A DNA stretch of 64,000 nucleotides from the IMG/VR virus record IMGVR_UViG_3300031669_005140. The stretch is one strand, 5' to 3'. A program made the position numbers and the translations under genes. This DNA comes from a virus. Below are positions 2,349-59,597 of the stretch, piece after piece. Under the pieces are notes generated by a model. That model worked only from the letters and a program-made list of their open reading frames with translations, did not search any database and was not told where the DNA came from. Every line of letters starts with the position of its first letter. Position 1 is the stretch's first letter.

Positions 2349-3035
2349 ATGAAAGCAAATTACAACAAGTCGGAAATATTAAAAAGAGCGTGGTCCTTTT
2401 ATAAGGCAATTGACAACGAGTTAACATTTGCCGACTGTTTAAGAAAAAGTTGGCATATTGCTAAAAATGGCAATAACACAGAAACGTTCAATGAGATATA
2501 TAATAAATTTAATGGTATTATATATAGGCATATCTTGAATAAGATACATAAGTATGAAATTGCTGAAGAACTAACAACCGAGGTTTTTTTGAGGTTGGAT
2601 AAGCATTTAAAAAATTACGATGTTTACAGGGCAAAAATTAGTACATGGTTGTTTACCATTGCTAATAATATTGTGATTGATTACTATAGGGCAAATCATT
2701 CTAATATGTTTGTGAGTGTAGATAATTTTGTTGATGAAGAAGGTAGGGAATTTTTTCAAATTGCTGCACCAAGTTCATACGAAATTGAAGAAACTATGCA
2801 AACGAATGAAAATGGTAAACGTATTGCTCTGGCATTGGAAAATTTAAAGCCAATGCAAAAAAGAATTGCAGAGCTGTTTTTTCTTGATGACAGGCAATAC
2901 AATGAAATTGCCGAAATTTTAAGTATACCTATTGGAACCGTTAAGGGTAACATTAATAGGATTAGAGAAAAATTACAAGCAGAATTAAAAGAGCTGCATA
3001 CAAGCCGTATGCGTAAGCCAATTACAACCGAGTAA
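2349..3035 (+). CDS. ECF-type sigma-70 factor with an extra ~45-aa N-terminal domain
   Basis: Region 2 (AEELTTEVFLRL...ISTWLFTIANNIVIDYYR) and region 4 HTH (LKPMQKRIAELFFLDDRQYNEIAEILSIPIGTVKGNINRIREKL). Confidence 0.93.
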   Translation: MKANYNKSEILKRAWSFYKAIDNELTFADCLRKSWHIAKNGNNTETFNEIYNKFNGIIYRHILNKIHKYEIAEELTTEVFLRLDKHLKNYDVYRAKISTWLFTIANNIVIDYYRANHSNMFVSVDNFVDEEGREFFQIAAPSSYEIEETMQTNENGKRIALALENLKPMQKRIAELFFLDDRQYNEIAEILSIPIGTVKGNINRIREKLQAELKELHTSRMRKPITTE

Positions 3036-9926: not shown

Positions 9927-10238
9927 ATTGTAACATTTTCCACGTATTTTCGTATAATAAGTATTACAAGAAAAACTTAGAACTTAAACGATTTACAATG
10001 AAAAAAATGGCTAGTATTAGAGGTTCCCCCAAGGAGTAAAACATTTAATTTATAATTTAACTTAGCCGTATATAAAAACTATGAACGCCATGCACAGAAT
10101 TAGAGATCGAACCAACTAAGCAAACTACAAATAAGAACGAAATTTAATATAGACAATTAATAATAAGACTAATCGCCAACCCCAAGATAATTATATAGTG
10201 GGTTGGCGATTAAAGTTTTGTAACAAATTATAATTTTT

Positions 10239-10312
10239 TTCGTATAATGAAATAACTTTTGTCTTATATCGCTGTCGTTGTAGTTAACCAGACTGCCGAC
10301 AGCGAATTTTTT
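10239..10312 (+). repeat. 74-bp block, copy 2
   Basis: Identical to 9093-9166. Confidence 0.85.
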
Positions 10313-10430
10313 TATTTAGTGTAACAAATTCTAATTTTTTTCGTATATTTGTATATCTATTTGTATTATTATTCTAATCGTTGTTGTGGCGTTATGAACC
10401 ACAGCAACGATTTCTTAACACAATTTTATT

Positions 10431-13951: not shown

Positions 13952-14068
13952 ACTTGTGCCTAACGGTCGAGGCTATGAACTGAAAGCCGACACCACAAAA
14001 GATAATTAATAGTAATAACCTTAATAAAGGCTTTTTGTTTATAGCCTTTGTTAGCAACTTTTAAAATT

Positions 14069-14215
14069 ATGGAACGATTAGCAGATAAGACAGTAGAAGA
14101 ATTGAAACAAATTAGAGAAGATTATGTTAAAAAGTACATTGGTGACTTTGATAAACCAATAGATTATGCACGAACTTTATTACACTTGGATAGGTTAATA
14201 ATGGCGAAAGGGTAA
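14069..14215 (+). CDS. cassette-borne 48-aa protein
   Basis: Read manually (MERLADKTVEELKQIRE...); fills the cassette between GTTAGCAAC and GTTGCTAAC. Confidence 0.6.
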   Translation: MERLADKTVEELKQIREDYVKKYIGDFDKPIDYARTLLHLDRLIMAKG

Positions 14216-14290
14216 TAATTTTTATTGTTGCTAACGGTTGCAGGTATATTTTGATTTTTTACGGATTTGAAACACTAAAACTAAATAACA

Positions 14291-14524
14291 ATGATTAGAA
14301 CACCAGAAGAACAACATTTGCACGAACTTATAGAAAGTTACGTTGCTCCATTGCGAAGTGAAATAAAAGAACTACGCAAAGAATTAGCAGAACAGCAAGT
14401 AAAAAATTTGAATATACCTGCTGTTATGGGTGAGTTAACTTGCGATAGTTGCGGTTGCCATCCAAATGTGATATACACAACAGGTAAGGGTAGATTTTGC
14501 GAAAGGTGTATACCAGCAAGTTAA
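14291..14524 (+). CDS. cassette-borne coiled-coil plus Zn-finger protein
   Basis: CDSC...CERC after the junction at 14423. Confidence 0.7.
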   Translation: MIRTPEEQHLHELIESYVAPLRSEIKELRKELAEQQVKNLNIPAVMGELTCDSCGCHPNVIYTTGKGRFCERCIPAS

Positions 14525-16743: not shown

Positions 16744-17457
16744 ATGAAAATTACAACAGATTATCTTCTGGCAATTAATGCTTGTGATGAAGCAATTGCT
16801 ATCTTTAATAATACAACAGAACTTCATTCTGTTGATATTACCAACCCATCTGAAATTATTACGGGTGATGAATCACTATTTAGTCATATTGACTGGCTGG
16901 TTAATAAATTAAAAGGTAAATTACCTGTTAGTAAGTTAACTTTTAAGAATTCAAGTGGTTATACTGTGGAGTATACCTATGATGAAAAAGGTAATAGGTT
17001 AACAACTAAGAATTCTAATGGTTATTCAGAAGAATCTACCTATGATGAAAAAGGAAATAAGTTAACTTATATGGATTCAACTGGTTATTCAGAAGAGTAT
17101 ACCTATGATGAAAAAGGAAATATGTTAACCTATAAGAATTCTGATGGTAATTCATATGAGTATACCTATGATGAAAAAGGAAATAGGTTAACTTATATGG
17201 ATTCAAATGGTAATACTAAAGAGTATACCTATGATGAAAAAGGTAATATGTTAACTTTTAAGAATTCAACAGGTTATTCAGAAGAGAGAACCTATGATGA
17301 AAGAGGAAAGGTATTAACTTATAAGGATTCAAGTGGTTATACATATGAGTATACCTATGATGAAAAAGGGAATGAGTTAACTTATAAGAATTCAAATGGT
17401 AATATTACCGATTATACACAAATGAAGTATGATTTAACTAATTTTGAGATAAAGTAG
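16744..17457 (+). CDS. YD-like 21-aa repeat protein, paralog 1 (7 repeats)
   Basis: N-domain MKITTDYL..., units xLTYKxSxGxxxEYTYDEKGN, C-tail MKYDLTNFEIK. Confidence 0.9.
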   Translation: MKITTDYLLAINACDEAIAIFNNTTELHSVDITNPSEIITGDESLFSHIDWLVNKLKGKLPVSKLTFKNSSGYTVEYTYDEKGNRLTTKNSNGYSEESTYDEKGNKLTYMDSTGYSEEYTYDEKGNMLTYKNSDGNSYEYTYDEKGNRLTYMDSNGNTKEYTYDEKGNMLTFKNSTGYSEERTYDERGKVLTYKDSSGYTYEYTYDEKGNELTYKNSNGNITDYTQMKYDLTNFEIK

Positions 17458-17524: not shown

Positions 17525-17749
17525 ATGTTAACAATTTCTTTTGAGTCAGGAAGAGTTCGTGATTGGCATGTTGGTGAAAAATCACCTGTTGAATATGGTG
17601 AAGTAAGTTTTGTTGAAGAAATTCAAATTGATGGTGATGAACTTGAACATGTGAAAAATATCTTTCCCAATTCAGGATTTATACCCAATATTCAAGTTGT
17701 TAGAATTTTTGGTGATATGGCCAAATTAATCATTGCAAACATTTTTTAA
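17525..17749 (+). CDS. hypothetical protein
   Basis: ORF track; after promoter 17460. Confidence 0.7.
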   Translation: MLTISFESGRVRDWHVGEKSPVEYGEVSFVEEIQIDGDELEHVKNIFPNSGFIPNIQVVRIFGDMAKLIIANIF

Positions 17750-17758
17750 AATACTGTC

Positions 17759-18085
17759 ATGGATTTAAAAGCATTCAAATTTCCAAAACTAACCCCTGTT
17801 GACATGGCGATTTCTACGCTTGAAACAGATAAAAAGTTGTTGGCTGAAGCAACTGAAAGGGGTTTTTATAATGGCAATACGCCCTATAATGACTTATTTA
17901 GCCAAGCATTCTTTAGTGGTGGACAAGTTGTGTTCAAAGAAGGTCTTGATGACGAATTTAAGCAGGATGCTTGGAATTACTGTAGGGCATTAATGCGTAG
18001 TTTTCAACCTAAGCATGAAGAAAAGGAAGCAGTTTGCGCAATGTTAATGAGTGAATTGCTTGAACCTAAAATGGCTGGTGAGTAA
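17759..18085 (+). CDS. phage hypothetical protein
   Basis: ORF track. Confidence 0.75.
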   Translation: MDLKAFKFPKLTPVDMAISTLETDKKLLAEATERGFYNGNTPYNDLFSQAFFSGGQVVFKEGLDDEFKQDAWNYCRALMRSFQPKHEEKEAVCAMLMSELLEPKMAGE

Positions 18086-18224
18086 TGTACACTAAATTAA
18101 TCAGAATGAAAAGACTATTTTAATCGTGAGAAATTAAAACAATTACTAACCTAGATTGTAACATATCTAGGTTTTTTTCGTATAATGTACTACAACTAAT
18201 ATCTAATACTTTAAACTAATCAAA

Positions 18225-18464
18225 ATGAAAAAATTTATTATTGCTCAACTTATTATTTACATTGTCGGATTACTGATTTGGTTTTTCAGCATTGTACTAC
18301 CAATTGGAAAACTAATCTTTACTCACATTCAAGATGTGGTAAATAAGCATGTTAATCTTGACATGTTCTACATTGGTAAAGAAATCCTATACCTCATTGG
18401 TTGGAGCATTCTTTTAAGCATATGTATGTTTATAATACAGATAATCGTATTGCCAAAATCTTAA
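18225..18464 (+). CDS. small membrane protein
   Basis: Two hydrophobic segments. Confidence 0.7.
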   Translation: MKKFIIAQLIIYIVGLLIWFFSIVLPIGKLIFTHIQDVVNKHVNLDMFYIGKEILYLIGWSILLSICMFIIQIIVLPKS

Positions 18465-18679
18465 CTAAAAAACACTTTGCTATGAATAAATTTTTGTTTA
18501 TCTTTACATTCATTTTTGGTGTTATTTCTTTAACGACATACACCAAGGTATTTGATAGAAACATTGCTGGATTTTTTGACACGCTATGGCCAACAGATAC
18601 AACACCACTTTTGAAATGGCTTGACCTAATAATTTTTGTGCTATCGTTAGCATATCAAATTAATTACTGGTTACTGTAA
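18401..18679 (+). CDS. small membrane protein (probable start 18482)
   Basis: Hydrophobic segments after MNKFLFIFTFIFG. Confidence 0.6.
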   Translation: MEHSFKHMYVYNTDNRIAKILTKKHFAMNKFLFIFTFIFGVISLTTYTKVFDRNIAGFFDTLWPTDTTPLLKWLDLIIFVLSLAYQINYWLL

Positions 18680-18732
18680 CAAATTAATTATTCTTACGTA
18701 TAATAAGTATAACAACGTTCTTTGAAGATATT

Positions 18733-19493
18733 GTGAGTGGTAAAATAGATAGATGCTACCGAATTTCAAGGGAAACGGAATCTAGGCATAACCCGTTATA
18801 ACATGTCGTGCGACTGACATAAAAGGCCAAAAGTTATGCTACCACTTACTTTTAAAATTGTAGTGAACTCTTCTACTGAATACAGACAGTGATTAAGGAT
18901 TCTCTGGGCGATGCAACTAAACCTTTAGTCTATGTTATTCATAGCCTACATAGGAATATGCCAGATATTGAGGGATAATATCATAATTCTAAGCTAATAG
19001 GATGTTGTTTGGGGTAAGATAACAGAAGTAAAATAGTTATTGCAACTATACAGAAATTAAGGAGTAATTACCTGAAATCGTAGGCTAATTCATATTAGTA
19101 ATATTGAATGTTATTCCACCTTAGCATTGTGGATAGAAGAGTTTCCTTTTAAAATATTGAAACAAGTAATGCAGAGATGAGTTGAAGCAATTAGAAATAT
19201 CAAAGTTTACTATTGGTAAATATTACTCATTAACTACAGTCGAGTAATAAGATTGTTCAAAATTGTGGATCGGAGTATTACTTGTTTCCCTTATTGAAAT
19301 GCTTATAATAGGTGACTCAAGTAGATGTCAGTAAGCACCTCTTATTAATAGTCTGACAAGTAAGTATTTCTTTAATTTGAAAGTGTTTTGGTGATAAATA
19401 TAAGACACTGAGCTTGGGGAGCCGCTATGAAGTGTTCTGGATATGACAGAAGTCCTCGGATTATAAGTAGTCAGATTATCACCAAACACTTTC
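18733..19493 (+). ncRNA. cluster of five stem-closed structured RNA domains (or one large multidomain RNA)
   Basis: No + ORF after promoter 18675; long closing stems 18733/18849, 18866/19143, 19159/19288, 19296/19370, 19379/19493. Confidence 0.65.
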
Positions 19494-19506
19494 TTTAAAA
19501 CATTAA

Positions 19507-19580
19507 GGGCAATGTTACCGTGGTTGTGAAACAGCGATTGCGGGAATGAGGGGAACACGGTTCGAGTCCGTCATTGTCCA
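19507..19580 (+). ncRNA. tRNA-like RNA with Ala identity elements and no canonical anticodon arm
   Basis: Acceptor GGGCAAT/ATTGTCC-A (G3.U70, A73); T arm ACGG-TTCGAGT-CCGT. Confidence 0.6.
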
Positions 19581-19656
19581 CTAATTAACAATTAAAAACA
19601 TTATCGTCGGAAGGCGATAGTAGCAACAGAAATAATTACGTAATAAACCTGTTGCT

Positions 19657-19728
19657 TGCGATATGGAGTAGGGGTTAACTTGCCCTCAGTACAGGGGGGA
19701 GACATTGGTTCGAGTCCAATTATCGCAA
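19657..19728 (+). tRNA. tRNA-Val(TAC)-like with a non-canonical anticodon loop
   Basis: Acceptor TGCGATA/TATCGCA, D stem GAGT/ACTT, anticodon stem CCCTC/GGGGG, loop AGTACAG, T arm ATTGG-TTCGAGT-CCAAT; no encoded CCA. Confidence 0.75.
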
Positions 19729-19753
19729 CTAATATTAATTAAAACCAATTAAC

Positions 19754-20047
19754 ATGAAAAGCAAGGAATACATTGCAGTAAAGAATTTCATTCATAACGA
19801 TTTGAAATTAACTAAAACTGAACTTCATAGTATTATTGTTGAAGCGGTTAAGGATGAAGCAAAGGCACAAGTTAAACTGCATATGCAGCAAGACCCTAAT
19901 TTAAACCAGACTGTAAGAGAACAACTTTTTAAAGAAATTACAAACGCTGTTAGTGGAAGATCGTTCGATAGTAGCAGAAACGAATTCTTTAGAAAAATTG
20001 GCGAAGAACTAGTAAAGCAATTAAACGTATCAATTAAAACTCAGTAA
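19754..20047 (+). CDS. hypothetical protein
   Basis: ORF track. Confidence 0.75.
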   Translation: MKSKEYIAVKNFIHNDLKLTKTELHSIIVEAVKDEAKAQVKLHMQQDPNLNQTVREQLFKEITNAVSGRSFDSSRNEFFRKIGEELVKQLNVSIKTQ

Positions 20048-20049
20048 TT

Positions 20050-20379
20050 ATGCCATATATTATAGTATCAATTGCAGTGATATTGCTATATTTAGCAATA
20101 AGTCCAAAAAAATCAAAATTCATTAATGAGAAAGAATATAATAAATATGGTTATGGAATATCTATTTTATGCGTTACTCTCATGATATTATCATCACTTA
20201 TTTTTAATGATGGGTATAAAAGAGGGCAAATTGACGCAATTAAAGGTAAGTATCAATATCGCTATGTAGTTATCACAACATTTGTAGGTTCTGCTATTAC
20301 TAGCAAAGATACAATCTATGTTAGAAAAAAGCCAAATGCAACATATACTTATCAAGGTATTACTACTAAACTTAATTAA
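20050..20379 (+). CDS. membrane protein
   Basis: Two hydrophobic segments. Confidence 0.7.
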   Translation: MPYIIVSIAVILLYLAISPKKSKFINEKEYNKYGYGISILCVTLMILSSLIFNDGYKRGQIDAIKGKYQYRYVVITTFVGSAITSKDTIYVRKKPNATYTYQGITTKLN

Positions 20380-24928: not shown

Positions 24929-25768
24929 ATGAAAATTACAACTGATTATCTAAAAGCAATTAAGGCTTGTGATGAAGCAATTGCTATGTTTAATAATACA
25001 CCTGAACTTCATTTAGTTGATATTACCAACATCTCTGAAATTATTACGGGTGATGAATCACTGTTTAATCATATTAATTGGCTGGTTAATAAGTTAAAAG
25101 GTAAATTACCTGTTAGTAAATTAACTTATAAAGATTTTAAAGGTAATTCATATGAGTATACCTATGATGAAAAAGGGAATAAGTTAACTAATAAAGATTT
25201 TAAAGGTAATTCATATGAGTATACCTATGATGAAAAAGGAAAAGTATTAACTTATAAGAATTCTGATGGTTATTCAGAAGAGTATACCTATGATGAAAGA
25301 GGAAATAGGTTAACTTATAAGAATTCTGATGGTTATTGGTATGAGCATACCTATGATGAAAAAGGAAATGCATTAACTTATAAGGATTCAAATGGTAATA
25401 CTAAAGAGTATACCTATGATGAAAAAGGAAATATGTTAACTTATAAGGATTCAAATGGTTATACTGAAGAGTATACCTATGATGAAAAAGGAAATGCATT
25501 AACTTATAAGGATTCAAATGGTAATACTAAAGAGTATACCTATGATGAAAAAGGAAATGTGTTAACATATAAAGATTCAAAAGGTTATACTAAAGAGTAT
25601 ACCTATGATGAAAAAGGAAATAGGTTAACTGTTAAGGATTCAACTGGTTATTCAGAAGAGAGAACCTATGATGAAAATGGAAATGTATTAACTTATAATG
25701 ATTCTGATGGTAATATTACCGATTATACACAAATGAAATATGATTTAACTCTTTTTGAGATAAAGTAG
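24929..25768 (+). CDS. YD-like 21-aa repeat protein, paralog 2 (9 repeats)
   Basis: Same N-domain and C-tail as 16744; 42 aa longer, equal to 2 units. Confidence 0.9.
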   Translation: MKITTDYLKAIKACDEAIAMFNNTPELHLVDITNISEIITGDESLFNHINWLVNKLKGKLPVSKLTYKDFKGNSYEYTYDEKGNKLTNKDFKGNSYEYTYDEKGKVLTYKNSDGYSEEYTYDERGNRLTYKNSDGYWYEHTYDEKGNALTYKDSNGNTKEYTYDEKGNMLTYKDSNGYTEEYTYDEKGNALTYKDSNGNTKEYTYDEKGNVLTYKDSKGYTKEYTYDEKGNRLTVKDSTGYSEERTYDENGNVLTYNDSDGNITDYTQMKYDLTLFEIK

Positions 25769-26178
25769 TTTGTAACAATGTTCACTAATTTTCGTATAAT
25801 AAGGACTTCTATAATGAAGTAATTAAACCAAATCCACAAATTACCCAAGAAATTATCATTAAGCAGTCCAAATATTAAAAATATTTCCCGCTACGTTAGT
25901 AGCAACATTGTTGTGTTTTTGGTTAGTGCCCCAGAGAGTTGTGACCTCTGGGGTTTTTTGTTTTTATATCTTGTCCTGAGAAGATAATTCATAATATCTA
26001 TTTTAAATAAGATATGTTGTAACAATTATTCTTTACATTCGTATAAGAAATATCTTTTAATTAAAACTGTTACAGAAATAAAAACACAATAATTTTAATT
26101 AAGAAAAAAATGCGTTGTATATTTGTAACAAAATTGTTTTTATCTCGTAATATAGATATAAACCAAAAATTTTAAACA

Positions 26179-40977: not shown

Positions 40978-42133
40978 GGTGTTTACTATACTAATACTTA
41001 AGGTAATTACAACGAACTGTTCTGAATTTGGTCTTAACTGATGGGTGTTTACTATACTAATACTTAAGGTAATTACAACAAATACGTTACGAAAGGCAAG
41101 GCTGTTTCTGGTGTTTACTATACTAATACTTAAGGTAATTACAACACCTTGTTTATATATTCAGGCATCAATACTGGTGTTTACTATACTAATACTTAAG
41201 GTAATTACAACAGAGTAAGGTAAATGAGTGGATTAACGATAGGTGTTTACTATACTAATACTTAAGGTAATTACAACCTTCAACCGTATTTGGTGCATTA
41301 ACTGGTGGTGTTTACTATACTAATACTTAAGGTAATTACAACTCTTTTAATTTATCAAATTCAATTAATGCTGGTGTTTACTATACTAATACTTAAGGTA
41401 ATTACAACACTGATTTAGAAAATCCAAAATATAATTATGGTGTTTACTATACTAATACTTAAGGTAATTACAACAGAGTAAGGTAAATGAGTGGATTAAC
41501 GATAGGTGTTTACTATACTAATACTTAAGGTAATTACAACACAATGGGTGAAGTATGTGAGTTGCTCAAGGGTGTTTACTATACTAATACTTAAGGTAAT
41601 TACAACACGTTGTGCGTAATTGTGCTTTTGATTTTGGATGTTTACTATACTAATACTTAAGGTAATTACAACGTTCACCGAATAGTTGGGTATGTGCTTA
41701 TGATGTTTACTATACTAATACTTAAGGTAATTACAACGTTGCAAATTAATAGCGGTGATTTATCACGATGTTTACTATACTAATACTTAAGGTAATTACA
41801 ACCAATTGTTTATAATTGAGATTAATCCAGAAGATGTTTACTATACTAATACTTAAGGTAATTACAACTTTTCAGCTAAAAGAAAAAGGGAGCTCGATGA
41901 TGTTTACTATACTAATACTTAAGGTAATTACAACAAGTAAATACCAATACCACCTACATAGAGGGATGTTTACTATACTAATACTTAAGGTAATTACAAC
42001 CCAGTGCCCTCAAAGGGAGTTCTAAATATCTGATGTTTACTATACTAATACTTAAGGTAATTACAACTTATGTAGCTGCATCAAGTATTGATGATGGGGT
42101 GTTTACTATACTAATACTTAAGGTAATTACAAC
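40978..42133 (+). CRISPR. CRISPR array: 18 repeats of 36 bp, 17 spacers of 29-31 bp
   Basis: Repeat G(G/A)TGTTTACTATACTAATACTTAAGGTAATTACAAC; spacers 13x30, 3x29, 1x31; spacer 4 = spacer 8. Confidence 0.99.
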
Positions 42134-42196
42134 TAAGCACCCCCAAATAATCGGGTATTTACAATGTTAAAATTTAAAGTAGTTAACAATTTTACT

Positions 42197-42328: not shown

Positions 42329-42787
42329 ATGAAAATAACAACTGATTATCTCAAATCAATTGATGCATCATCAAGTATGATTGCTCGATTTAGTTATACA
42401 CCCGAACTACACGATATCGATATGTTATCGGAAGTTACAACTGGTGATAAATCATTATTTAACGATATTAATTGGTTGATTAATAAGTTAAAAGGTAAAT
42501 TACCTGTTAGTAAGTTAACTTTTAAGAATTCAAGTGGTTATACTATGGAGTATACCTATGATGAAAGAGGAAATAAGTTAACTTTTAAGAATTCAACTGG
42601 TTATGCTGAAGAATATACCTATGATGAAAGAGGAAATAAGTTAACATTTAAGAATTCAAATGGTTATTCATCTGAATATACTTATGATGAAAGAGGAAAT
42701 AAGTTAACTTATAAGAACTCAGATGGTAATATTATTGCTGATTATACACAAATGAAGTATGATTTAACTGATTTTGAGATAAGATAA
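42329..42787 (+). CDS. YD-like repeat protein, paralog 3 (3 repeats)
   Basis: Same N-domain and C-tail; lies between the array and cas3. Confidence 0.88.
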   Translation: MKITTDYLKSIDASSSMIARFSYTPELHDIDMLSEVTTGDKSLFNDINWLINKLKGKLPVSKLTFKNSSGYTMEYTYDERGNKLTFKNSTGYAEEYTYDERGNKLTFKNSNGYSSEYTYDERGNKLTYKNSDGNIIADYTQMKYDLTDFEIR

Positions 42788-46255: not shown

Positions 46256-46960
46256 ATGAAAATTACGATTCATTATCTCAAGTCAATTAATGCGTCTTCA
46301 GAAATGATTACTAAATTTAAGAACACGCCAGAACTTCATAATATCGATATATTATCGGAAGTTACAACTGGTGATGAATCATTATTTAACGATATTCAAT
46401 GGATAATTGGTAGGTTAAAGGGTGAACTACCAGTTAAAAAATTAACTTTTATTGATGTAGATAAATATTCTGAAGAATATACTTATAATGAAAAGGGTAA
46501 GGTTTTAACCTATACAGATTCTGATAATAATTCTGAAAAATATACTTATGATGAAAAAGGGAATATCCTAACCTATAAAAATTCTGATGGTTATTTTGAA
46601 AAATATGTGTATGATGTAAATGGAAATATGCTAACATATACAAATTCAAGTGGTTATTGGTCAGAAAATACGTATAATGAAAAAAATATGCAATTAACAT
46701 ATAAAGATTCTAATAATAATTCTGAAGAATATACTTACGATGAAAAGGGATGGATTTTAACCTATAAAAATTCTGACAATAGTTCATATGAAAATACCTA
46801 TGATGAGGATGGTAAAATGATAACCCATAAAAATTCTAATGGTTATTTACTTCAATATGTCTACGATGAAAATGGTTATTTAATGATGACTAATGATTTA
46901 AGCGAGAATGCTGATATTCCTATATTAAAATATGATTTAACTCTTTTTGAAACAAAGTAA
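46256..46960 (+). CDS. YD-like repeat protein, paralog 5 (7 diverged repeats)
   Basis: MKITIHYLKSI...LKYDLTLFETK. Confidence 0.88.
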   Translation: MKITIHYLKSINASSEMITKFKNTPELHNIDILSEVTTGDESLFNDIQWIIGRLKGELPVKKLTFIDVDKYSEEYTYNEKGKVLTYTDSDNNSEKYTYDEKGNILTYKNSDGYFEKYVYDVNGNMLTYTNSSGYWSENTYNEKNMQLTYKDSNNNSEEYTYDEKGWILTYKNSDNSSYENTYDEDGKMITHKNSNGYLLQYVYDENGYLMMTNDLSENADIPILKYDLTLFETK

Positions 46961-49986: not shown

Positions 49987-50144
49987 TTTTGTTCTTGTGA
50001 TATTACTCATAGGGATTTGTCTGAGTTAAAAAGTGGTAGATGCATGGGTGCAACTGATAACTAATGTAACAAAACTAAGTTATATACGTATAACACAATA
50101 AATATGTAATTTACTCCCAGATTTAAAAATAATTAATTGACTTA

Positions 50145-50549
50145 ATGCCAAAAAACATGGAAAAGGAACAGAATTTACAAACAGCAGAAACACAGTCATT
50201 AAATATACCAGTTACTATGCCACGTATTTCTCATTTTATTGATGAGAATGGCAATAATGTAGATATAAATGCTGGCGGTGTGAATGTGATATTGAAACGA
50301 GATGGAACTCACGAATATTTTATAAGTTATGGGTTTGCAGGTAGAATGCAACTCACTCCAATATATGTTACCAACAAACGTTGTATTGAATTAAAGCGTA
50401 GTGATTTGCAGAAAGACAAAAATAATTTACCAATTGATATGATAACACTATATGATTTTAAGGGAAGTGTGATGAGTAGGAATGAAATAAATATGGCAGA
50501 ACAAATTATTTTTGTTGATGGTGAACAGATAAAAGAACTTAAGAACTAA
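50145..50549 (+). CDS. hypothetical protein with a cassette-junction-like N-terminus
   Basis: ETQSLNIPVTMPR resembles NLNIPAVMG and NLTIPRVVG of the cassette genes. Confidence 0.7.
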   Translation: MPKNMEKEQNLQTAETQSLNIPVTMPRISHFIDENGNNVDINAGGVNVILKRDGTHEYFISYGFAGRMQLTPIYVTNKRCIELKRSDLQKDKNNLPIDMITLYDFKGSVMSRNEINMAEQIIFVDGEQIKELKN

Positions 50550-50682
50550 TATGCTACTTGGTAATATGAAAAAAAGAATGAAATTATAAATGCAACATTA
50601 AAAGCATATCAATCATAAATTAATTGTAACACATTATTATAATTTTCGTATAATATGTATTAGTAACATAAAAATTAATGTC

Positions 50683-51054
50683 ATGTCAAAACTCAAAGAA
50701 TATTTAGAGCAGAAAAGAATTCGTGAATTGGAATTGCCTAAATTATACGTAGTTAAATCTACAAAAGAAGGCGTTGAAAAACCAATGGAAATGCAAGTCA
50801 TTCAAATTAAAAAGAATGTAGGTATTTCACATACTCAAGAAGGCAAAGTTAGCATTCATAGATATTTTGTCAATAACTCGCCTTTTGAAATTGATATTTT
50901 AGAAGGAAAAACAAATGCAATTGATATGCAATATGGTAGTGGGTGTGGTGATTTATGGGGATATACATACTTTTCTTCTTTATTACCGAATGAAGCGGAT
51001 GAGTTTTATGACAAGGAATTGGAGAGAGTTAATCAAAAATATAAAACTAAATAA
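50683..51054 (+). CDS. hypothetical protein
   Basis: ORF track; promoter 50625. Confidence 0.75.
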   Translation: MSKLKEYLEQKRIRELELPKLYVVKSTKEGVEKPMEMQVIQIKKNVGISHTQEGKVSIHRYFVNNSPFEIDILEGKTNAIDMQYGSGCGDLWGYTYFSSLLPNEADEFYDKELERVNQKYKTK

Positions 51055-51056
51055 AT

Positions 51057-51266
51057 ATGAGTTTAAATTCTGGTTCAAAACATTATGATGCTTACTATGA
51101 CCACGTTTTAGATAAGCAAAAAGCAACAGGTAATATTGCAAAAGTATATAATTTAATCTCTGATATATCTGATAGGCGTGGTCTAAGACAAGAATGGGAA
51201 GAAATTGATGGTGATATTCAAGATGAAATCATAGAAAAGTGGATTAAAATTATAGAAGGTTCTTAA
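51057..51266 (+). CDS. hypothetical protein
   Basis: ORF track. Confidence 0.7.
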   Translation: MSLNSGSKHYDAYYDHVLDKQKATGNIAKVYNLISDISDRRGLRQEWEEIDGDIQDEIIEKWIKIIEGS

Positions 51267-51283
51267 TTAAAAATAAATTAACT

Positions 51284-51697
51284 ATGGAAATGTTTAGTAG
51301 TTGTGCTGGTAGGTGTGATGATTGCGTAATTAGCTATATCGGAGGATGTATTGCTGGTCATGGTGATGATGATTTCTCACCTATCACTGAAGAAATTGCA
51401 AAGAAATTGGTTAAGGAAAATAGTGTAAAAGACTATAGGCTCAAAGCGTTGAAAAATAAATTTCCGTCATTAAATGATGTGGCAAAAGAATCACAAACAT
51501 CTGACATTAATATTACAAATTGCACTCAATGCAATTTTCATAAAATATTACCAGACCCTGATCCAGATGATTGGTTTTGTGATGATGATGTAAAGGTAAT
51601 GTGTACAAAAGAAAATAGAAATATTACTGTTGCATGTAGACCTCATCACGTAAAAAGGGAATGTAATGTGCCTAAATGGTGTCCACTCACTAAGTAA
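51284..51697 (+). CDS. Cys-rich hypothetical protein
   Basis: Several CxxC motifs; ends CPL. Confidence 0.75.
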   Translation: MEMFSSCAGRCDDCVISYIGGCIAGHGDDDFSPITEEIAKKLVKENSVKDYRLKALKNKFPSLNDVAKESQTSDINITNCTQCNFHKILPDPDPDDWFCDDDVKVMCTKENRNITVACRPHHVKRECNVPKWCPLTK

Positions 51698-51918
51698 TTA
51701 GAAAACATGTATGTAGAAAAAACCGATAAAGAGATTATTGAAGCACTTGAATTTGCTGACAACTATGAGGCAGCATCATTAATCAAATACCAAAAAAAAC
51801 TGATTGCTAATTTGAGGCGAGAACTTACAAAGTTAAAGAAAAAAAATAAGTCCAAGTAACAAATTTAAATTAATTTCGTATAATAAGTATTATTAGTTTT
51901 TTAAAGCATTAATTAGTT

Positions 51919-52146
51919 ATGGAAAAACTTTATTTTAAAACAACGGGAAGTGAACCAGATGTTTGTTGTGTTGAACCTTGTATCTATGAAGATAGACCAA
52001 GTGAAGGCACAATGATTGGAAGTTCAAATTGCCAAGATTGTAGAGCATGTTATGGTTGGGATAGTGAAGAAAATTGGATTAAATGTCTAAATCATTCCTT
52101 GGAAAAACAAGGTTTTCCTGTACGACTAGCCGATATTGAAAAATAA
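51919..52146 (+). CDS. Cys-rich hypothetical protein
   Basis: ORF track; promoter 51855. Confidence 0.7.
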   Translation: MEKLYFKTTGSEPDVCCVEPCIYEDRPSEGTMIGSSNCQDCRACYGWDSEENWIKCLNHSLEKQGFPVRLADIEK

Positions 52147-52170
52147 TTAATAGCAATTATATCATAGAAA

Positions 52171-52380
52171 ATGGAATATTTTTTAGGAAAAATAAGATTC
52201 TTGCTGAAAATTGAATATGATTTTGGGATGGAAGAAAATATTGAAGGCGAATTGTCTCACCTTGTAAAAGCGAGTGATAAAGACCTTGCAAGAATCGCAT
52301 TATTGGAGTATTGGGAAAAAGAAAATAATGGTGCGGTTTTACTTGAAGCACGAATATACGATACAATATTTGGTAAATAA
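52171..52380 (+). CDS. hypothetical protein
   Basis: ORF track. Confidence 0.65.
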   Translation: MEYFLGKIRFLLKIEYDFGMEENIEGELSHLVKASDKDLARIALLEYWEKENNGAVLLEARIYDTIFGK

Positions 52381-52426
52381 TACACATGTAACAAATTTAA
52401 ATTAATTTCGTATAACATAAAAAACT

Positions 52427-52612
52427 ATGGAAACATTTAGCGGTATATTTGAATTTCAAATTGATGAAAAATCAAATGGAATTGTTTTACGTCTTAATGA
52501 CGAGAGAGGTATTTGTGCACTAAGAATATGCAAAATACCTAAAGAATTGGTCTTTAATCAAGACGGTACAATAAAAGAATTTATTGATATTGCATACCCC
52601 AATAATCAATAA
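52427..52612 (+). CDS. hypothetical protein
   Basis: ORF track; promoter 52387. Confidence 0.65.
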   Translation: METFSGIFEFQIDEKSNGIVLRLNDERGICALRICKIPKELVFNQDGTIKEFIDIAYPNNQ

Positions 52613-58179: not shown

Positions 58180-58551
58180 ATGGAACGAGAAGAAAAGATG
58201 CAGCGGATAGCGCATCACTTGACGATGATTGGGTTGCTGGCGGAGATGGAGATTAAGTCTATTGGAGACCGGCTGGTGTTTATTAAGGACGGAGAGCACT
58301 TCGTTGTAGGGAGATATGGGCTAGAGCCATCGGTTAGGATAAACCTACAGCAAAGGGTAAAGGACTTGGAGGGCTCTCTCTTTAGGGCCAACGCCTCACT
58401 CAGCTCTGCCCAGCGAAGGCTAAGGGGCATGGTGGAGTCCAGGATGCTAGGAAAGAAGGAAACCCATAAGCTGATGTCCATACTCGATAGCAGCGAGTCC
58501 GACAGGGAAAAGGTTATTGAGATGAAGCGATACCTAAAGGCCAATGTATGA
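58180..58551 (+). CDS. coiled-coil hypothetical protein
   Basis: ORF track; ATGA overlap with the methyltransferase. Confidence 0.7.
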   Translation: MEREEKMQRIAHHLTMIGLLAEMEIKSIGDRLVFIKDGEHFVVGRYGLEPSVRINLQQRVKDLEGSLFRANASLSSAQRRLRGMVESRMLGKKETHKLMSILDSSESDREKVIEMKRYLKANV

Positions 58552-59597
58552 TTCATATAGGACTATTTGAAGGTACAGGAGGCTTCTCATTGGCCGCAGA
58601 ATGGGCAGGATGGGAGACACTTGCTACCTGCGAGATCAACCCATTCGGTCAGCGAGTATTGAAGCATTACTGGCCTAACGCATACCATCACGGAGACATA
58701 CATACACTTACCTATGAAACAATTAACGCTGAACTTACAAACAGATTTGGAACCCACTGGAGAGATGAAGATGTTATCATCACAGGAGGGTTTCCTTGCC
58801 AGCCATATTCTGTCGCGGGGAAAAGACTCGGAAAAGAGGATGAACGCCACCTCTGGCCAGAAATGCTGCGAGTCATACAGGAGGTTCAGCCAACCTACGT
58901 TGTGGGCGAAAACGTTCGTGGGCTACTTAGTTGGGATGGAGGGTTGGTATTCGACGAGGTGCAGGCTGACCTGGAGGCTGCTGGGTACGAAGTCATCCCG
59001 TTTATACTTCCAGCTGCGGGTGTTAACGCTCCCCACCGAAGGGATAGAATCTGGTTTATTGCCCACTCCAACAACTATGGATTACATGGACCCAAAAACA
59101 GACAAGGCAATACTGAAGGAGATGACAATAACTCGTCCTGGAAGAACGCAGCTGTCGAATTTTCGGGACGTGGTGGTAAGGCAACCAATGAGGTTACTGA
59201 AAACTCCATCAGCAATGGATGCATACAGCGAGAACCTATCCAAGAAGGAGCAGAAGTTTGGGAACAGCGGAACGTTGGCGCAGGAGGTGCAGAGCGGGTT
59301 CATATACCAGAGGGGGCTGCTTCCAACACCAACAGCCGACGACAATCCAGAAAAGAATACAGGCAAGAGAAACCAGAATGGATTGCAGAATATGGCATCC
59401 CAGGAAACTGGGACTACTTCCCAACTCAATCCCCTGTTCGTAACGGAGATGCAGGGTTATCCAATAGATTGGTTGGAATTACCTTTCCTAAGTGGAGAAA
59501 CGAAAGCATAAAGGCGATGGGTAACGCTATTGTTCCTCAGGTAGCCTTTCAGATATTTAAGGCCATTAACTTAATGATACACAGTGAAAGCAACTAG
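58548..59597 (+). CDS. C5-cytosine DNA methyltransferase (alpha-type polypeptide)
   Basis: Motif I LFEGTGG, motif IV GGFPCQPYS, motif VI ENVRG, motif VIII PHRRDRIWF, motif X MGNAIVPQV. Confidence 0.93.
   Translation: MIHIGLFEGTGGFSLAAEWAGWETLATCEINPFGQRVLKHYWPNAYHHGDIHTLTYETINAELTNRFGTHWRDEDVIITGGFPCQPYSVAGKRLGKEDERHLWPEMLRVIQEVQPTYVVGENVRGLLSWDGGLVFDEVQADLEAAGYEVIPFILPAAGVNAPHRRDRIWFIAHSNNYGLHGPKNRQGNTEGDDNNSSWKNAAVEFSGRGGKATNEVTENSISNGCIQREPIQEGAEVWEQRNVGAGGAERVHIPEGAASNTNSRRQSRKEYRQEKPEWIAEYGIPGNWDYFPTQSPVRNGDAGLSNRLVGITFPKWRNESIKAMGNAIVPQVAFQIFKAINLMIHSESN
58714..59511 (+). CDS. nested alternative-frame ORF, probable beta subunit of the C5 methyltransferase
   Basis: 265-codon stop-free frame inside the MTase gene; LLPTP repeats; ends LNPLFVTEMQGYPIDW (motif IX-like). 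Confidence 0.6.
   Translation: MKQLTLNLQTDLEPTGEMKMLSSQEGFLASHILSRGKDSEKRMNATSGQKCCESYRRFSQPTLWAKTFVGYLVGMEGWYSTRCRLTWRLLGTKSSRLYFQLRVLTLPTEGIESGLLPTPTTMDYMDPKTDKAILKEMTITRPGRTQLSNFRDVVVRQPMRLLKTPSAMDAYSENLSKKEQKFGNSGTLAQEVQSGFIYQRGLLPTPTADDNPEKNTGKRNQNGLQNMASQETGTTSQLNPLFVTEMQGYPIDWLELPFLSGETKA

Follow-up and report, generated by a model that had tools for sequence, protein, structure and literature searches.

Small stable RNAs whose 5' and 3' ends pair with each other are known from several phages: species 1 and 2 of T4, the C4 RNA of P1 and P7, and the CI RNA of P4. They are co-transcribed with tRNAs or shaped like them, and tRNA-processing enzymes mature them. In the HIV-1 DIS hairpin, a loop of 9 nt has purines flanking a 6-nt palindrome (GUGCAC), which changes only to other palindromes. 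The phage RNAs ROOL and GOLLD lie near tRNA islands and form cages via kissing loops (doi 10.1101/2024.12.08.627333). In T4-type phages, short border elements named PeSL are associated with small units that close strains gain, lose or reshuffle (PMC2839356). Like ROOL and GOLLD, the RNA family that we define below is non-coding, encoded by phages beside tRNA islands, rich in helices and with no known protein partner. It differs from them in size (180-355 nt, versus about 580 and 800 nt), in having no sequence or covariance-model similarity to either, in its modular make-up with an optional insert and in being arrayed, at the present locus, with unrelated stem-closed RNAs; moreover, its multimerisation is a prediction from loop sequences. 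The analogy with GOLLD and ROOL drawn in the original prediction stands as regards the tRNA-side context and the kissing-loop signature, but does not extend to homology. T4 species 1 and 2, C4 and CI have no sequence relation to the family and are single genes of 75-140 nt, not cassette arrays. PeSL are promoter-terminator hairpins between protein genes, whereas here the unit itself is a conserved folded RNA.

The window, that is, the whole stretch of 64,000 nt analysed here, comes from a phage contig of 152 kb or more. It is AT-rich (~30% GC) and carries nearly all of its genes on the + strand, among them genes for Cas6, Cas7, Cas5 and Cas3, accompanied by an 18-repeat array, for DUF932, GP88-like and RHS-repeat proteins and, at 2349-3035, for an ECF sigma factor. 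The RNA region begins behind an ECF-type promoter (Table 1). The promoter motif TGTAACA-N16/17-CGTATAATA has 25-31 near-identical copies in the window, versus 3.4 expected, almost only on the + strand, and the block is also present in related phages; these repeated copies are consistent with a regulon under the phage's ECF sigma factor. The extended form TGTAACA-N16/17-CGTATAATA-(A/G)GTATAAC is found in 25 copies across 4000-26000 and 50000-52500, all on the + strand. No terminator-like site is seen downstream of the promoter before 20200, and no + strand ORF of at least 50 aa within 18680-19753, in agreement with the gap of about 1 kb originally reported. Other ORF-free gaps of the window (9962-10430, 25804-26178 and more) were considered as RNA arrays and proved to be terminator/promoter clusters instead.

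Five stem-closed units tile the region, followed by a tRNA-like element and a tRNA-Val. All five closing stems are present as originally described. The long-range pair AGCCTAC/GTAGGCT, also noticed at the outset, exists at 18943-49/19080-86; it lies, however, in a variable region, and its 3' strand is missing in one wastewater variant. In unit 4, an H-type pseudoknot combining 19310-14/19336-40 with 19326-31/19353-58 (TGTCAG/CTGACA) is topologically allowed and possible as judged from the letters of the unit, but to call it clear, as the original prediction did, goes too far. The tRNA-like genes that had been expected downstream comprise one real tRNA, Val-UAC, while the element at 19507-19580 is no more than tRNA-like and is called neither by ARAGORN nor by Rfam. 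In this element, one irregular arm replaces the D and anticodon arms, and wastewater relatives differ mainly in the 3' acceptor strand. Of the two tight hairpins that come next, the second runs right up to the first base of tRNA-Val; these hairpins could be an extra small RNA or a processing element.

Table 1. Positions of the promoter, RNA units and neighbouring elements in the window, with the members of the RNA family found in other phages
Feature	Position or loci	Strand	Description
ECF-type promoter	18676-18705	+	GTAACA-N17-CGTATAATA; 28 nt upstream of unit 1
Unit 1 (d1)	18733-18849	+	own 10-bp closing stem, 18733-42/18840-49; stand-alone insert module of the RNA family
Unit 1 conserved core	18770-18835	+	GGGAAACGGAAU ... 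UAACAUGUCGUGCGACUGACAUAAAAGGCC
Spacer, units 1/2	18850-18864	+	palindromic UUUUAAAA(UU) and 5' leader of unit 2
Unit 2 (d2)	18865-19146	+	282 nt; closing stem 18865-75/19134-44; short-form member of the RNA family
Unit 2, P1	18866-75/19134-43	+	closing helix
Unit 2, joining motif	18876-82	+	CUGAAUA, directly after P1 5' strand
Unit 2, P3	18883-89/19005-11	+	CAGACAG/UUGUUUG, 7/7 paired
Unit 2, hairpin Pb	18986-19003	+	loop AGCUAA
Unit 2, GGGGUAAGAUA	starts 19011	+	after Pb
Unit 2, 3' hairpin	19115-33	+	loop CUUAGCAUU; 11 nt from 3' end
Spacer after unit 2	19147-19158	+	UUUUAAAAUAUU
Unit 3 (d3)	19159-19288	+	orphan candidate; 14-bp closing stem, 19159-72/19275-88
Unit 4 (d4)	19296-19370	+	orphan 75-nt stem-closed candidate; closing stem 19296-306/19360-70
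Unit 5 (d5)	19379-19493	+	orphan candidate; 18-bp closing stem with one bulge, 19379-97/19476-93
tRNA-like element	19507-19580	+	acceptor stem GGGCAAU/AUUGUCC with G3-U70; discriminator A; standard T arm
Two tight hairpins	19600-19656	+	-19.1 kcal/mol, z = -5.5
tRNA-Val (UAC)	19657-19729	+	ARAGORN; Rfam tRNA 44.9 bits; no encoded CCA; last RNA of the operon
97-aa ORF	starts 19754		after tRNA-Val
Long forms	L048, L049, L050, L051, L053 (= L052), L055, L063, L064		288-354 nt
Short forms	L044 (= L047), L046, L067		183-212 nt; plus unit 2 of the window, 282 nt

The RNA family was defined from 11 further IMG/VR phage loci, gathered by exact-word scans with motifs of units 1 and 2. From 5' to 3', its members consist of P1, CUGAA(N), the P3 5' strand, Pb, the P3 3' strand, GGUAAG, variable hairpins, a 3' hairpin that lies 8-11 nt from the 3' end, and the P1 3' strand. 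The long forms alone carry, between the P3 5' strand and Pb, an insert module with AUGCUACC, GGGGAAACGGAAUUGG and UAACNNGUCGUGCGACUGACAUAAAAGGCC. The layout of unit 2 is identical to that of the short forms L044, L046 and L067 (Pb, GGGGUAAGAUA, 3' hairpin with loop CUUAGCAUU), and an nhmmer profile of these three, with the window left out, matches it end to end (18866-19139, E=7.7e-18). A profile of the eight long-form relatives, again leaving out the window sequences, matches unit 1 in the module only (E=2.6e-11); blast matches of this unit to L044 and L048-L053 are at 90-97%. All the characters of the family are found in unit 2: P1 with CUGAAUA, P3, Pb and the 3' hairpin, the profile match and a same-strand tRNA neighbourhood, the tRNA-like element and tRNA-Val lying 360-510 nt downstream in the same operon. 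Among the eight long forms, five adjoin a same-strand tRNA at a gap of 1-23 nt and the three others end at an intrinsic terminator; the four short forms are all followed by UUUUAAA(A)UAU, represented in the window by the UUUUAAAAUAUU spacer after P1. A complete 172-kb phage and two others possess the scaffold, with the insert module absent anywhere. Since the complete phage has the scaffold without the module, unit 1 is not needed by unit 2, and the two are probably not an obligate two-piece RNA. We conclude that unit 1 is the family's insert module, become a separate gene, that unit 2 is the family scaffold, and that the two represent a new and well-supported family of structured RNAs.

The surroundings of some relatives deserve mention. 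L046 has more stem-closed RNAs upstream, and two ORF-poor stretches located between the unit 2-like RNA and the tRNAs (L044:6775-7040 and L046:1100-1455) are packed with stem-closed hairpin units; arrays of small folded RNAs may thus be a common feature of this group of phages. In L051, L063 and L064, the long-form RNA is followed on its 3' side by a strong intrinsic terminator and then by a conserved gene whose product begins with MDILVDFDGTCT, which, by eye, looks like the DxDxT motif of a HAD-like protein.

In AT-rich DNA, folding energies and stems carry little weight. The z-scores of units 1 to 5 on the + strand are -2.7, -2.1, -4.3, -1.3 and -4.3, and all five fold better on this strand than on the other (for unit 3, -4.3 versus -2.5). 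However, shuffled sequences contain 11 stems of 10 bp, with G-U allowed, per 781 nt, and stem counts do not discriminate. The units are not recovered when the whole region is folded globally for minimum free energy (MFE), and the single-sequence MFE fold of unit 2 mispredicts the conserved P3. Because chance stems are so frequent, z-scores and stems are weak evidence by themselves, and the case rests on comparison. The unit borders coincide with break points of indels and rearrangements and with the ends of RNA contigs, as described below.

Covariation among homologs, which the original prediction had named as a check, was found for the relatives of units 1 and 2. It was counted over the eight long forms in three helices, P3, the CCAAU/AUUGG helix and Pb: 94.5% of the cells are paired, a share that drops to 77.8% in shuffles and to 29-40% with slid partners, both sides change in 15 of the 21 pairs, and none of 500 shuffles reached the observed values. 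Hand-made tables show that P1, P3, Pb and the 3' hairpin pair in 11 members out of 11, unit 2 included, with compensatory changes. The sequence of P1 differs between members and its pairing is kept in every one. All seven positions of P3 change on both sides among relatives (CAGACAG/UUGUUUG in unit 2, CAAACAG/UUGUUUG and CAGGCAG/UUGUCUG elsewhere), and the 3' hairpin pairs as UCCA/UGGA, GGCA/UGUC or GGUA/UACC. The wastewater variants of this unit show compensation in Pb, where the changes at two partner positions, 18991 A>G and 18998 U>C, go together in the same contigs. The presence of U-G as well as G-U pairs in P3, together with the better folding on the + strand, led us to assign the RNA to this strand.

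The loop of Pb differs between the two forms of the family. In seven of seven long forms it is an 8-nt loop made of a purine, a 6-nt palindrome and a purine; the palindrome is of three kinds (GUCGAC, AUGCAU and GUGCAC), self-complementarity being kept through the changes. This suggests that the long forms might assemble into multimers through kissing loops, as do ROOL and GOLLD. The loop plan, and GUGCAC itself, are shared with the HIV-1 DIS, from which the family differs in origin, context and loop length (8 nt here), so that the parallel concerns mechanism alone. The Pb loop of the four short forms, AGCUAA, has 5 nt complementary to the loop of the 3' hairpin (UUAGC), and both loops are invariant. 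The putative contact between them, which as a consequence of this invariance displays no covariation, could be intramolecular.

The units behave as cassettes. An ENA contig from a sister strain (L028) is 100% identical to the window over 17748-18871 and 99.7% over 18846-20100, and has, inserted between units 1 and 2, a sixth stem-closed unit of 119 nt with its own UUUUAAAAUAUU spacer. The joint of this indel falls within the ACTCT arm motif common to both units. The extra unit (L028:1118-1236) shares with unit 2 the outer arm GAACUCU/AGAGUUU, and the hairpin beside its 3' arm has a loop palindrome, UUGCAA, which recurs in unit 2 at 19040-45. Three other arrangements were read from contigs of four public runs compared with the window; in X6 and X7, the uncovered parts of the stretch do not count as absence, and small shares of matching words in the many further wastewater runs were given no weight. 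In one wastewater relative, 18860-19482 (units 2-5) is swapped for 156 other letters. A second has unit 2 directly behind the promoter leader, without unit 1, and then, past a loose end at 19162, a unit with the first 12 nt of unit 5 and another interior. Further contigs have only the 3' arm of unit 2 in common with the window, and one wastewater variant of unit 1 bears a 55-nt insertion at the variable-hairpin site of the RNA family. The break points at 18859/18860 (in X5 and X8) and at 19144-19162 are unit borders. Units 3-5 are 100% conserved between the two strains available. The closing-stem arms may double as recombination handles. Elsewhere in the window, at 14050-14421, two back-to-back protein-coding cassettes each have mutually pairing arms of 21-23 nt, with a 4-nt linker; the leader and start codon lie in the 5' arm and the stop in the 3' arm, following the same grammar as the RNA units.

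Unit 2 is also found by itself in RNA libraries. In two soil metatranscriptome runs from two studies, only this unit is present, out of 1.2 kb compared, with 0-1 mismatch: the contigs span 18876-19136 and 18867-19144, without flanks. The source sample and these runs probably belong to a single sampling campaign; k-mer depths in the assemblies are 3.7 and 9.3, and the contigs give neither strand nor true ends. Six studies have related words in their RNA-type libraries. The second contig, of 317 nt, begins and ends with the same 30 nt, which yields a closed 287-nt cycle consisting of unit 2 and 9 nt, ACCCAATGG, with 278 of 278 nt identical to phage DNA. Its junction keeps the cassette-specific AATGG, which precedes unit 2 as a leader in the DNA of the sister strain, and lacks the spacer. 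Excision at either side of the spacer, with subsequent joining of the ends, is consistent with this; the closed cycle could, instead, come from a third strain in which the unit stands twice in tandem. To read the junction as AC + CCA + ATGG, with CCA added before ligation, is pure speculation. In these metatranscriptomes, unit 2 is seen as a discrete RNA, possibly a circular one, and as such is a candidate circular RNA encoded by a DNA phage. Within the 64 kb, neither an RNA ligase nor RtcB or an RNase was found. For the closed-cycle form, a cut by RNase P at the foot of the helix was discarded in view of the retained 5' leader, as was an endless ORF of the DRT2 type on the cycle, which has stops in all frames and a length that is not a multiple of 3.

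That no known family could be assigned to the region has been borne out. Rfam 15 gives no match to the array or to its relatives, whether at the gathering score or at E<=10, and ribozyme models none at E<=10. There is no match either in 50,697 cultured-phage records, and no description of the family in the literature searched, beyond which other papers may hold one. Two 18-mers from unit 2 and the tRNA mimic, and one from unit 5, found no match in IMG/VR; in JGI metagenome contigs and GTDB genomes, 18-mers matched at chance only. No RNA array lies close to the relatives of either the GP88-like gene (64-79% aa identity) or the 97-aa gene downstream. For units 3-5, as for the sister strain's extra unit, the collections searched contain no relatives. 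Several identities were examined and rejected: a group I intron (no Rfam model match, flanks that are spacers or other RNAs, and a unit 2 that ends with UUU instead of a terminal G), a tRNA or tmRNA within 18733-19493 (nothing by ARAGORN or Rfam) and a hammerhead or other ribozyme spanning the spacers (spacers too short, no model match). The array has no antisense targets within the window and no similarity to the phage's CRISPR repeat.

The original prediction hesitated between one giant RNA and a polycistron of new motifs. The gain and loss of single units and the occurrence of unit 2 alone in RNA assemblies speak for the second: the ORF-free region is a polycistronic RNA-tRNA operon of independent modules. 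The best explanation as a whole, which we hold with moderate confidence, is a non-coding phage operon of separately folded RNA modules, in which units 1 and 2 belong to a conserved family of RNAs that may dock on one another. Transcription would proceed rightward from the phage's own ECF-sigma promoter, and the transcript would be a string of modules separated by AU-rich spacers and ending with the tRNA mimic and tRNA-Val, with the 5' and 3' ends of each module paired to close it. Cuts at the base of the closing helices would release the modules from the precursor; in those relatives where a tRNA lies 1-7 nt away, they would presumably be made by tRNA-processing enzymes, and in the window they would fall on both sides of the UUUUAAAAUAUU spacer. 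After excision, the closing helix might protect the ends, which would perhaps be ligated into a circle. Our best guess at a function, by analogy with ROOL and GOLLD, is an RNA-only assembly during infection, in which molecules would dock on each other through their loops in connection with the phage tRNA and translation programme. Units 3-5, like the additional unit in the sister strain, would be strain-variable accessory RNAs. A bolder version, which we regard as rather doubtful, would make the unit 2 family a third phage RNA-only self-assembling particle, excised from tRNA precursors and circularised, and the RNA cassettes a swappable accessory genome under a phage sigma factor; if true, such cassettes would be the RNA counterpart of anti-defence gene islands.

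Several features of the locus would also be expected if the inverted repeats were DNA-level cassette ends, shuffled in the manner of integrons or PeSL as folded single-stranded or recombining DNA, the units having no RNA function. Units are gained and lost as cassettes, the joint between sister strain and window lies in the shared arm motif ACTCT, the protein cassettes of 14050-14421 have self-complementary ends and a 4-nt linker, and the spacer contains the palindrome TTTTAAAA, with ACTTTTAAAATT also heading two protein cassette arrays. Integron attC sites measure 57-141 nt, lie beside an integrase and attI and have R''/R' boxes (..AAC / GTT..), to be compared with units of 75-282 nt; units 2 and 3 and the extra unit start with GAAC/GAAAC and end with GTTT, whereas units 1, 4 and 5 do not, and no integrase or recombinase was seen among 30 ORFs scanned in the window. 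We nevertheless judge this explanation unlikely. P3, Pb and the 3' hairpin, which are far from the ends, covary across distant phages, unit 2 occurs alone in RNA libraries with ends at P1, and relatives carry the RNA as a fixed gene 1-7 nt from tRNAs; the spacer, which would be kept in a site-specific DNA circle, is missing from the closed-cycle junction. A DNA role of the arms may, in any case, coexist with an RNA role. The same cassette-end view applied to units 3-5 only, as decayed cassettes or spacer DNA whose stems are remnants, is a possibility to be given some weight, even if we lean against it: these units have no relatives in any collection searched and are absent from the RNA contigs, a relative has 156 other letters in their place, and unit 4 has a z-score of -1.3. 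Yet units 3 and 5 fold far better than shuffles (z ~ -4.3), and the group is 100% conserved between two strains and shares its grammar with unit 2.

The reading of the region as separately folded modules must also be weighed against three explanations of another kind. That a gene has been split into units 1 and 2, which reassemble in trans as a long-form RNA, is attractive given that the long forms contain a module like unit 1 inside a scaffold like unit 2 and that the two units are adjacent and co-transcribed in the window. We find it quite improbable, as the module is missing from three phages with the scaffold, among them the 100%-complete 172-kb one, a wastewater relative has unit 2 behind the promoter leader without unit 1, and the two units form no significant duplex. 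No significant complementarity exists between any of the units, in fact, and this weighs against the 760 nt being one giant multi-domain RNA akin to GOLLD and ROOL, as do the separate or reordered units of relatives, the RNA contigs that end at the borders of unit 2 and the homologs of this unit that are complete within 183-212 nt in other phages. The single promoter, the lack of an internal terminator and the similar size and tRNA-adjacent position of GOLLD and ROOL leave such a giant RNA with a very small likelihood. Equally slight is the chance that unit 2 replicates autonomously as a viroid-like circular RNA, the phage having a DNA copy of it. The closed 287-nt cycle, seen once, in a metatranscriptome, and the related words in RNA-type libraries of six studies would suit it; on the other hand, 278 of 278 nt are identical to phage DNA, the junction leader is the DNA flank of the sister strain, homologs are fixed genes in many DNA phages, no ribozyme matches and all frames have stops.

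Few large structured phage RNA families beside tRNA genes exist for comparison, and a compact one of 180-355 nt is now added. Its clean covariation, its mutable docking loop and the natural existence of long, short and module-only forms make its structure and assembly testable in vitro. The locus also illustrates that structured phage RNAs can be arranged as exchangeable cassettes in a phage-controlled operon.

Other repeated or unusual segments were observed in the window. Four small genes (16932-17400, 25117-25714, 42511-42735 and 46460-46837), with 63-nt tandem repeats that encode RHS/YD repeats, are scattered in the early region. The CRISPR array, at 40978-42163, has 18 repeats of 36 nt, and its spacers at 41212-41241 and 41475-41504 are identical. 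Between 55000 and 60000, the GC content rises from ~30% to 42-49%, and a C5 cytosine methyltransferase is encoded at 58548-59597; this high-GC segment is probably a foreign insert.
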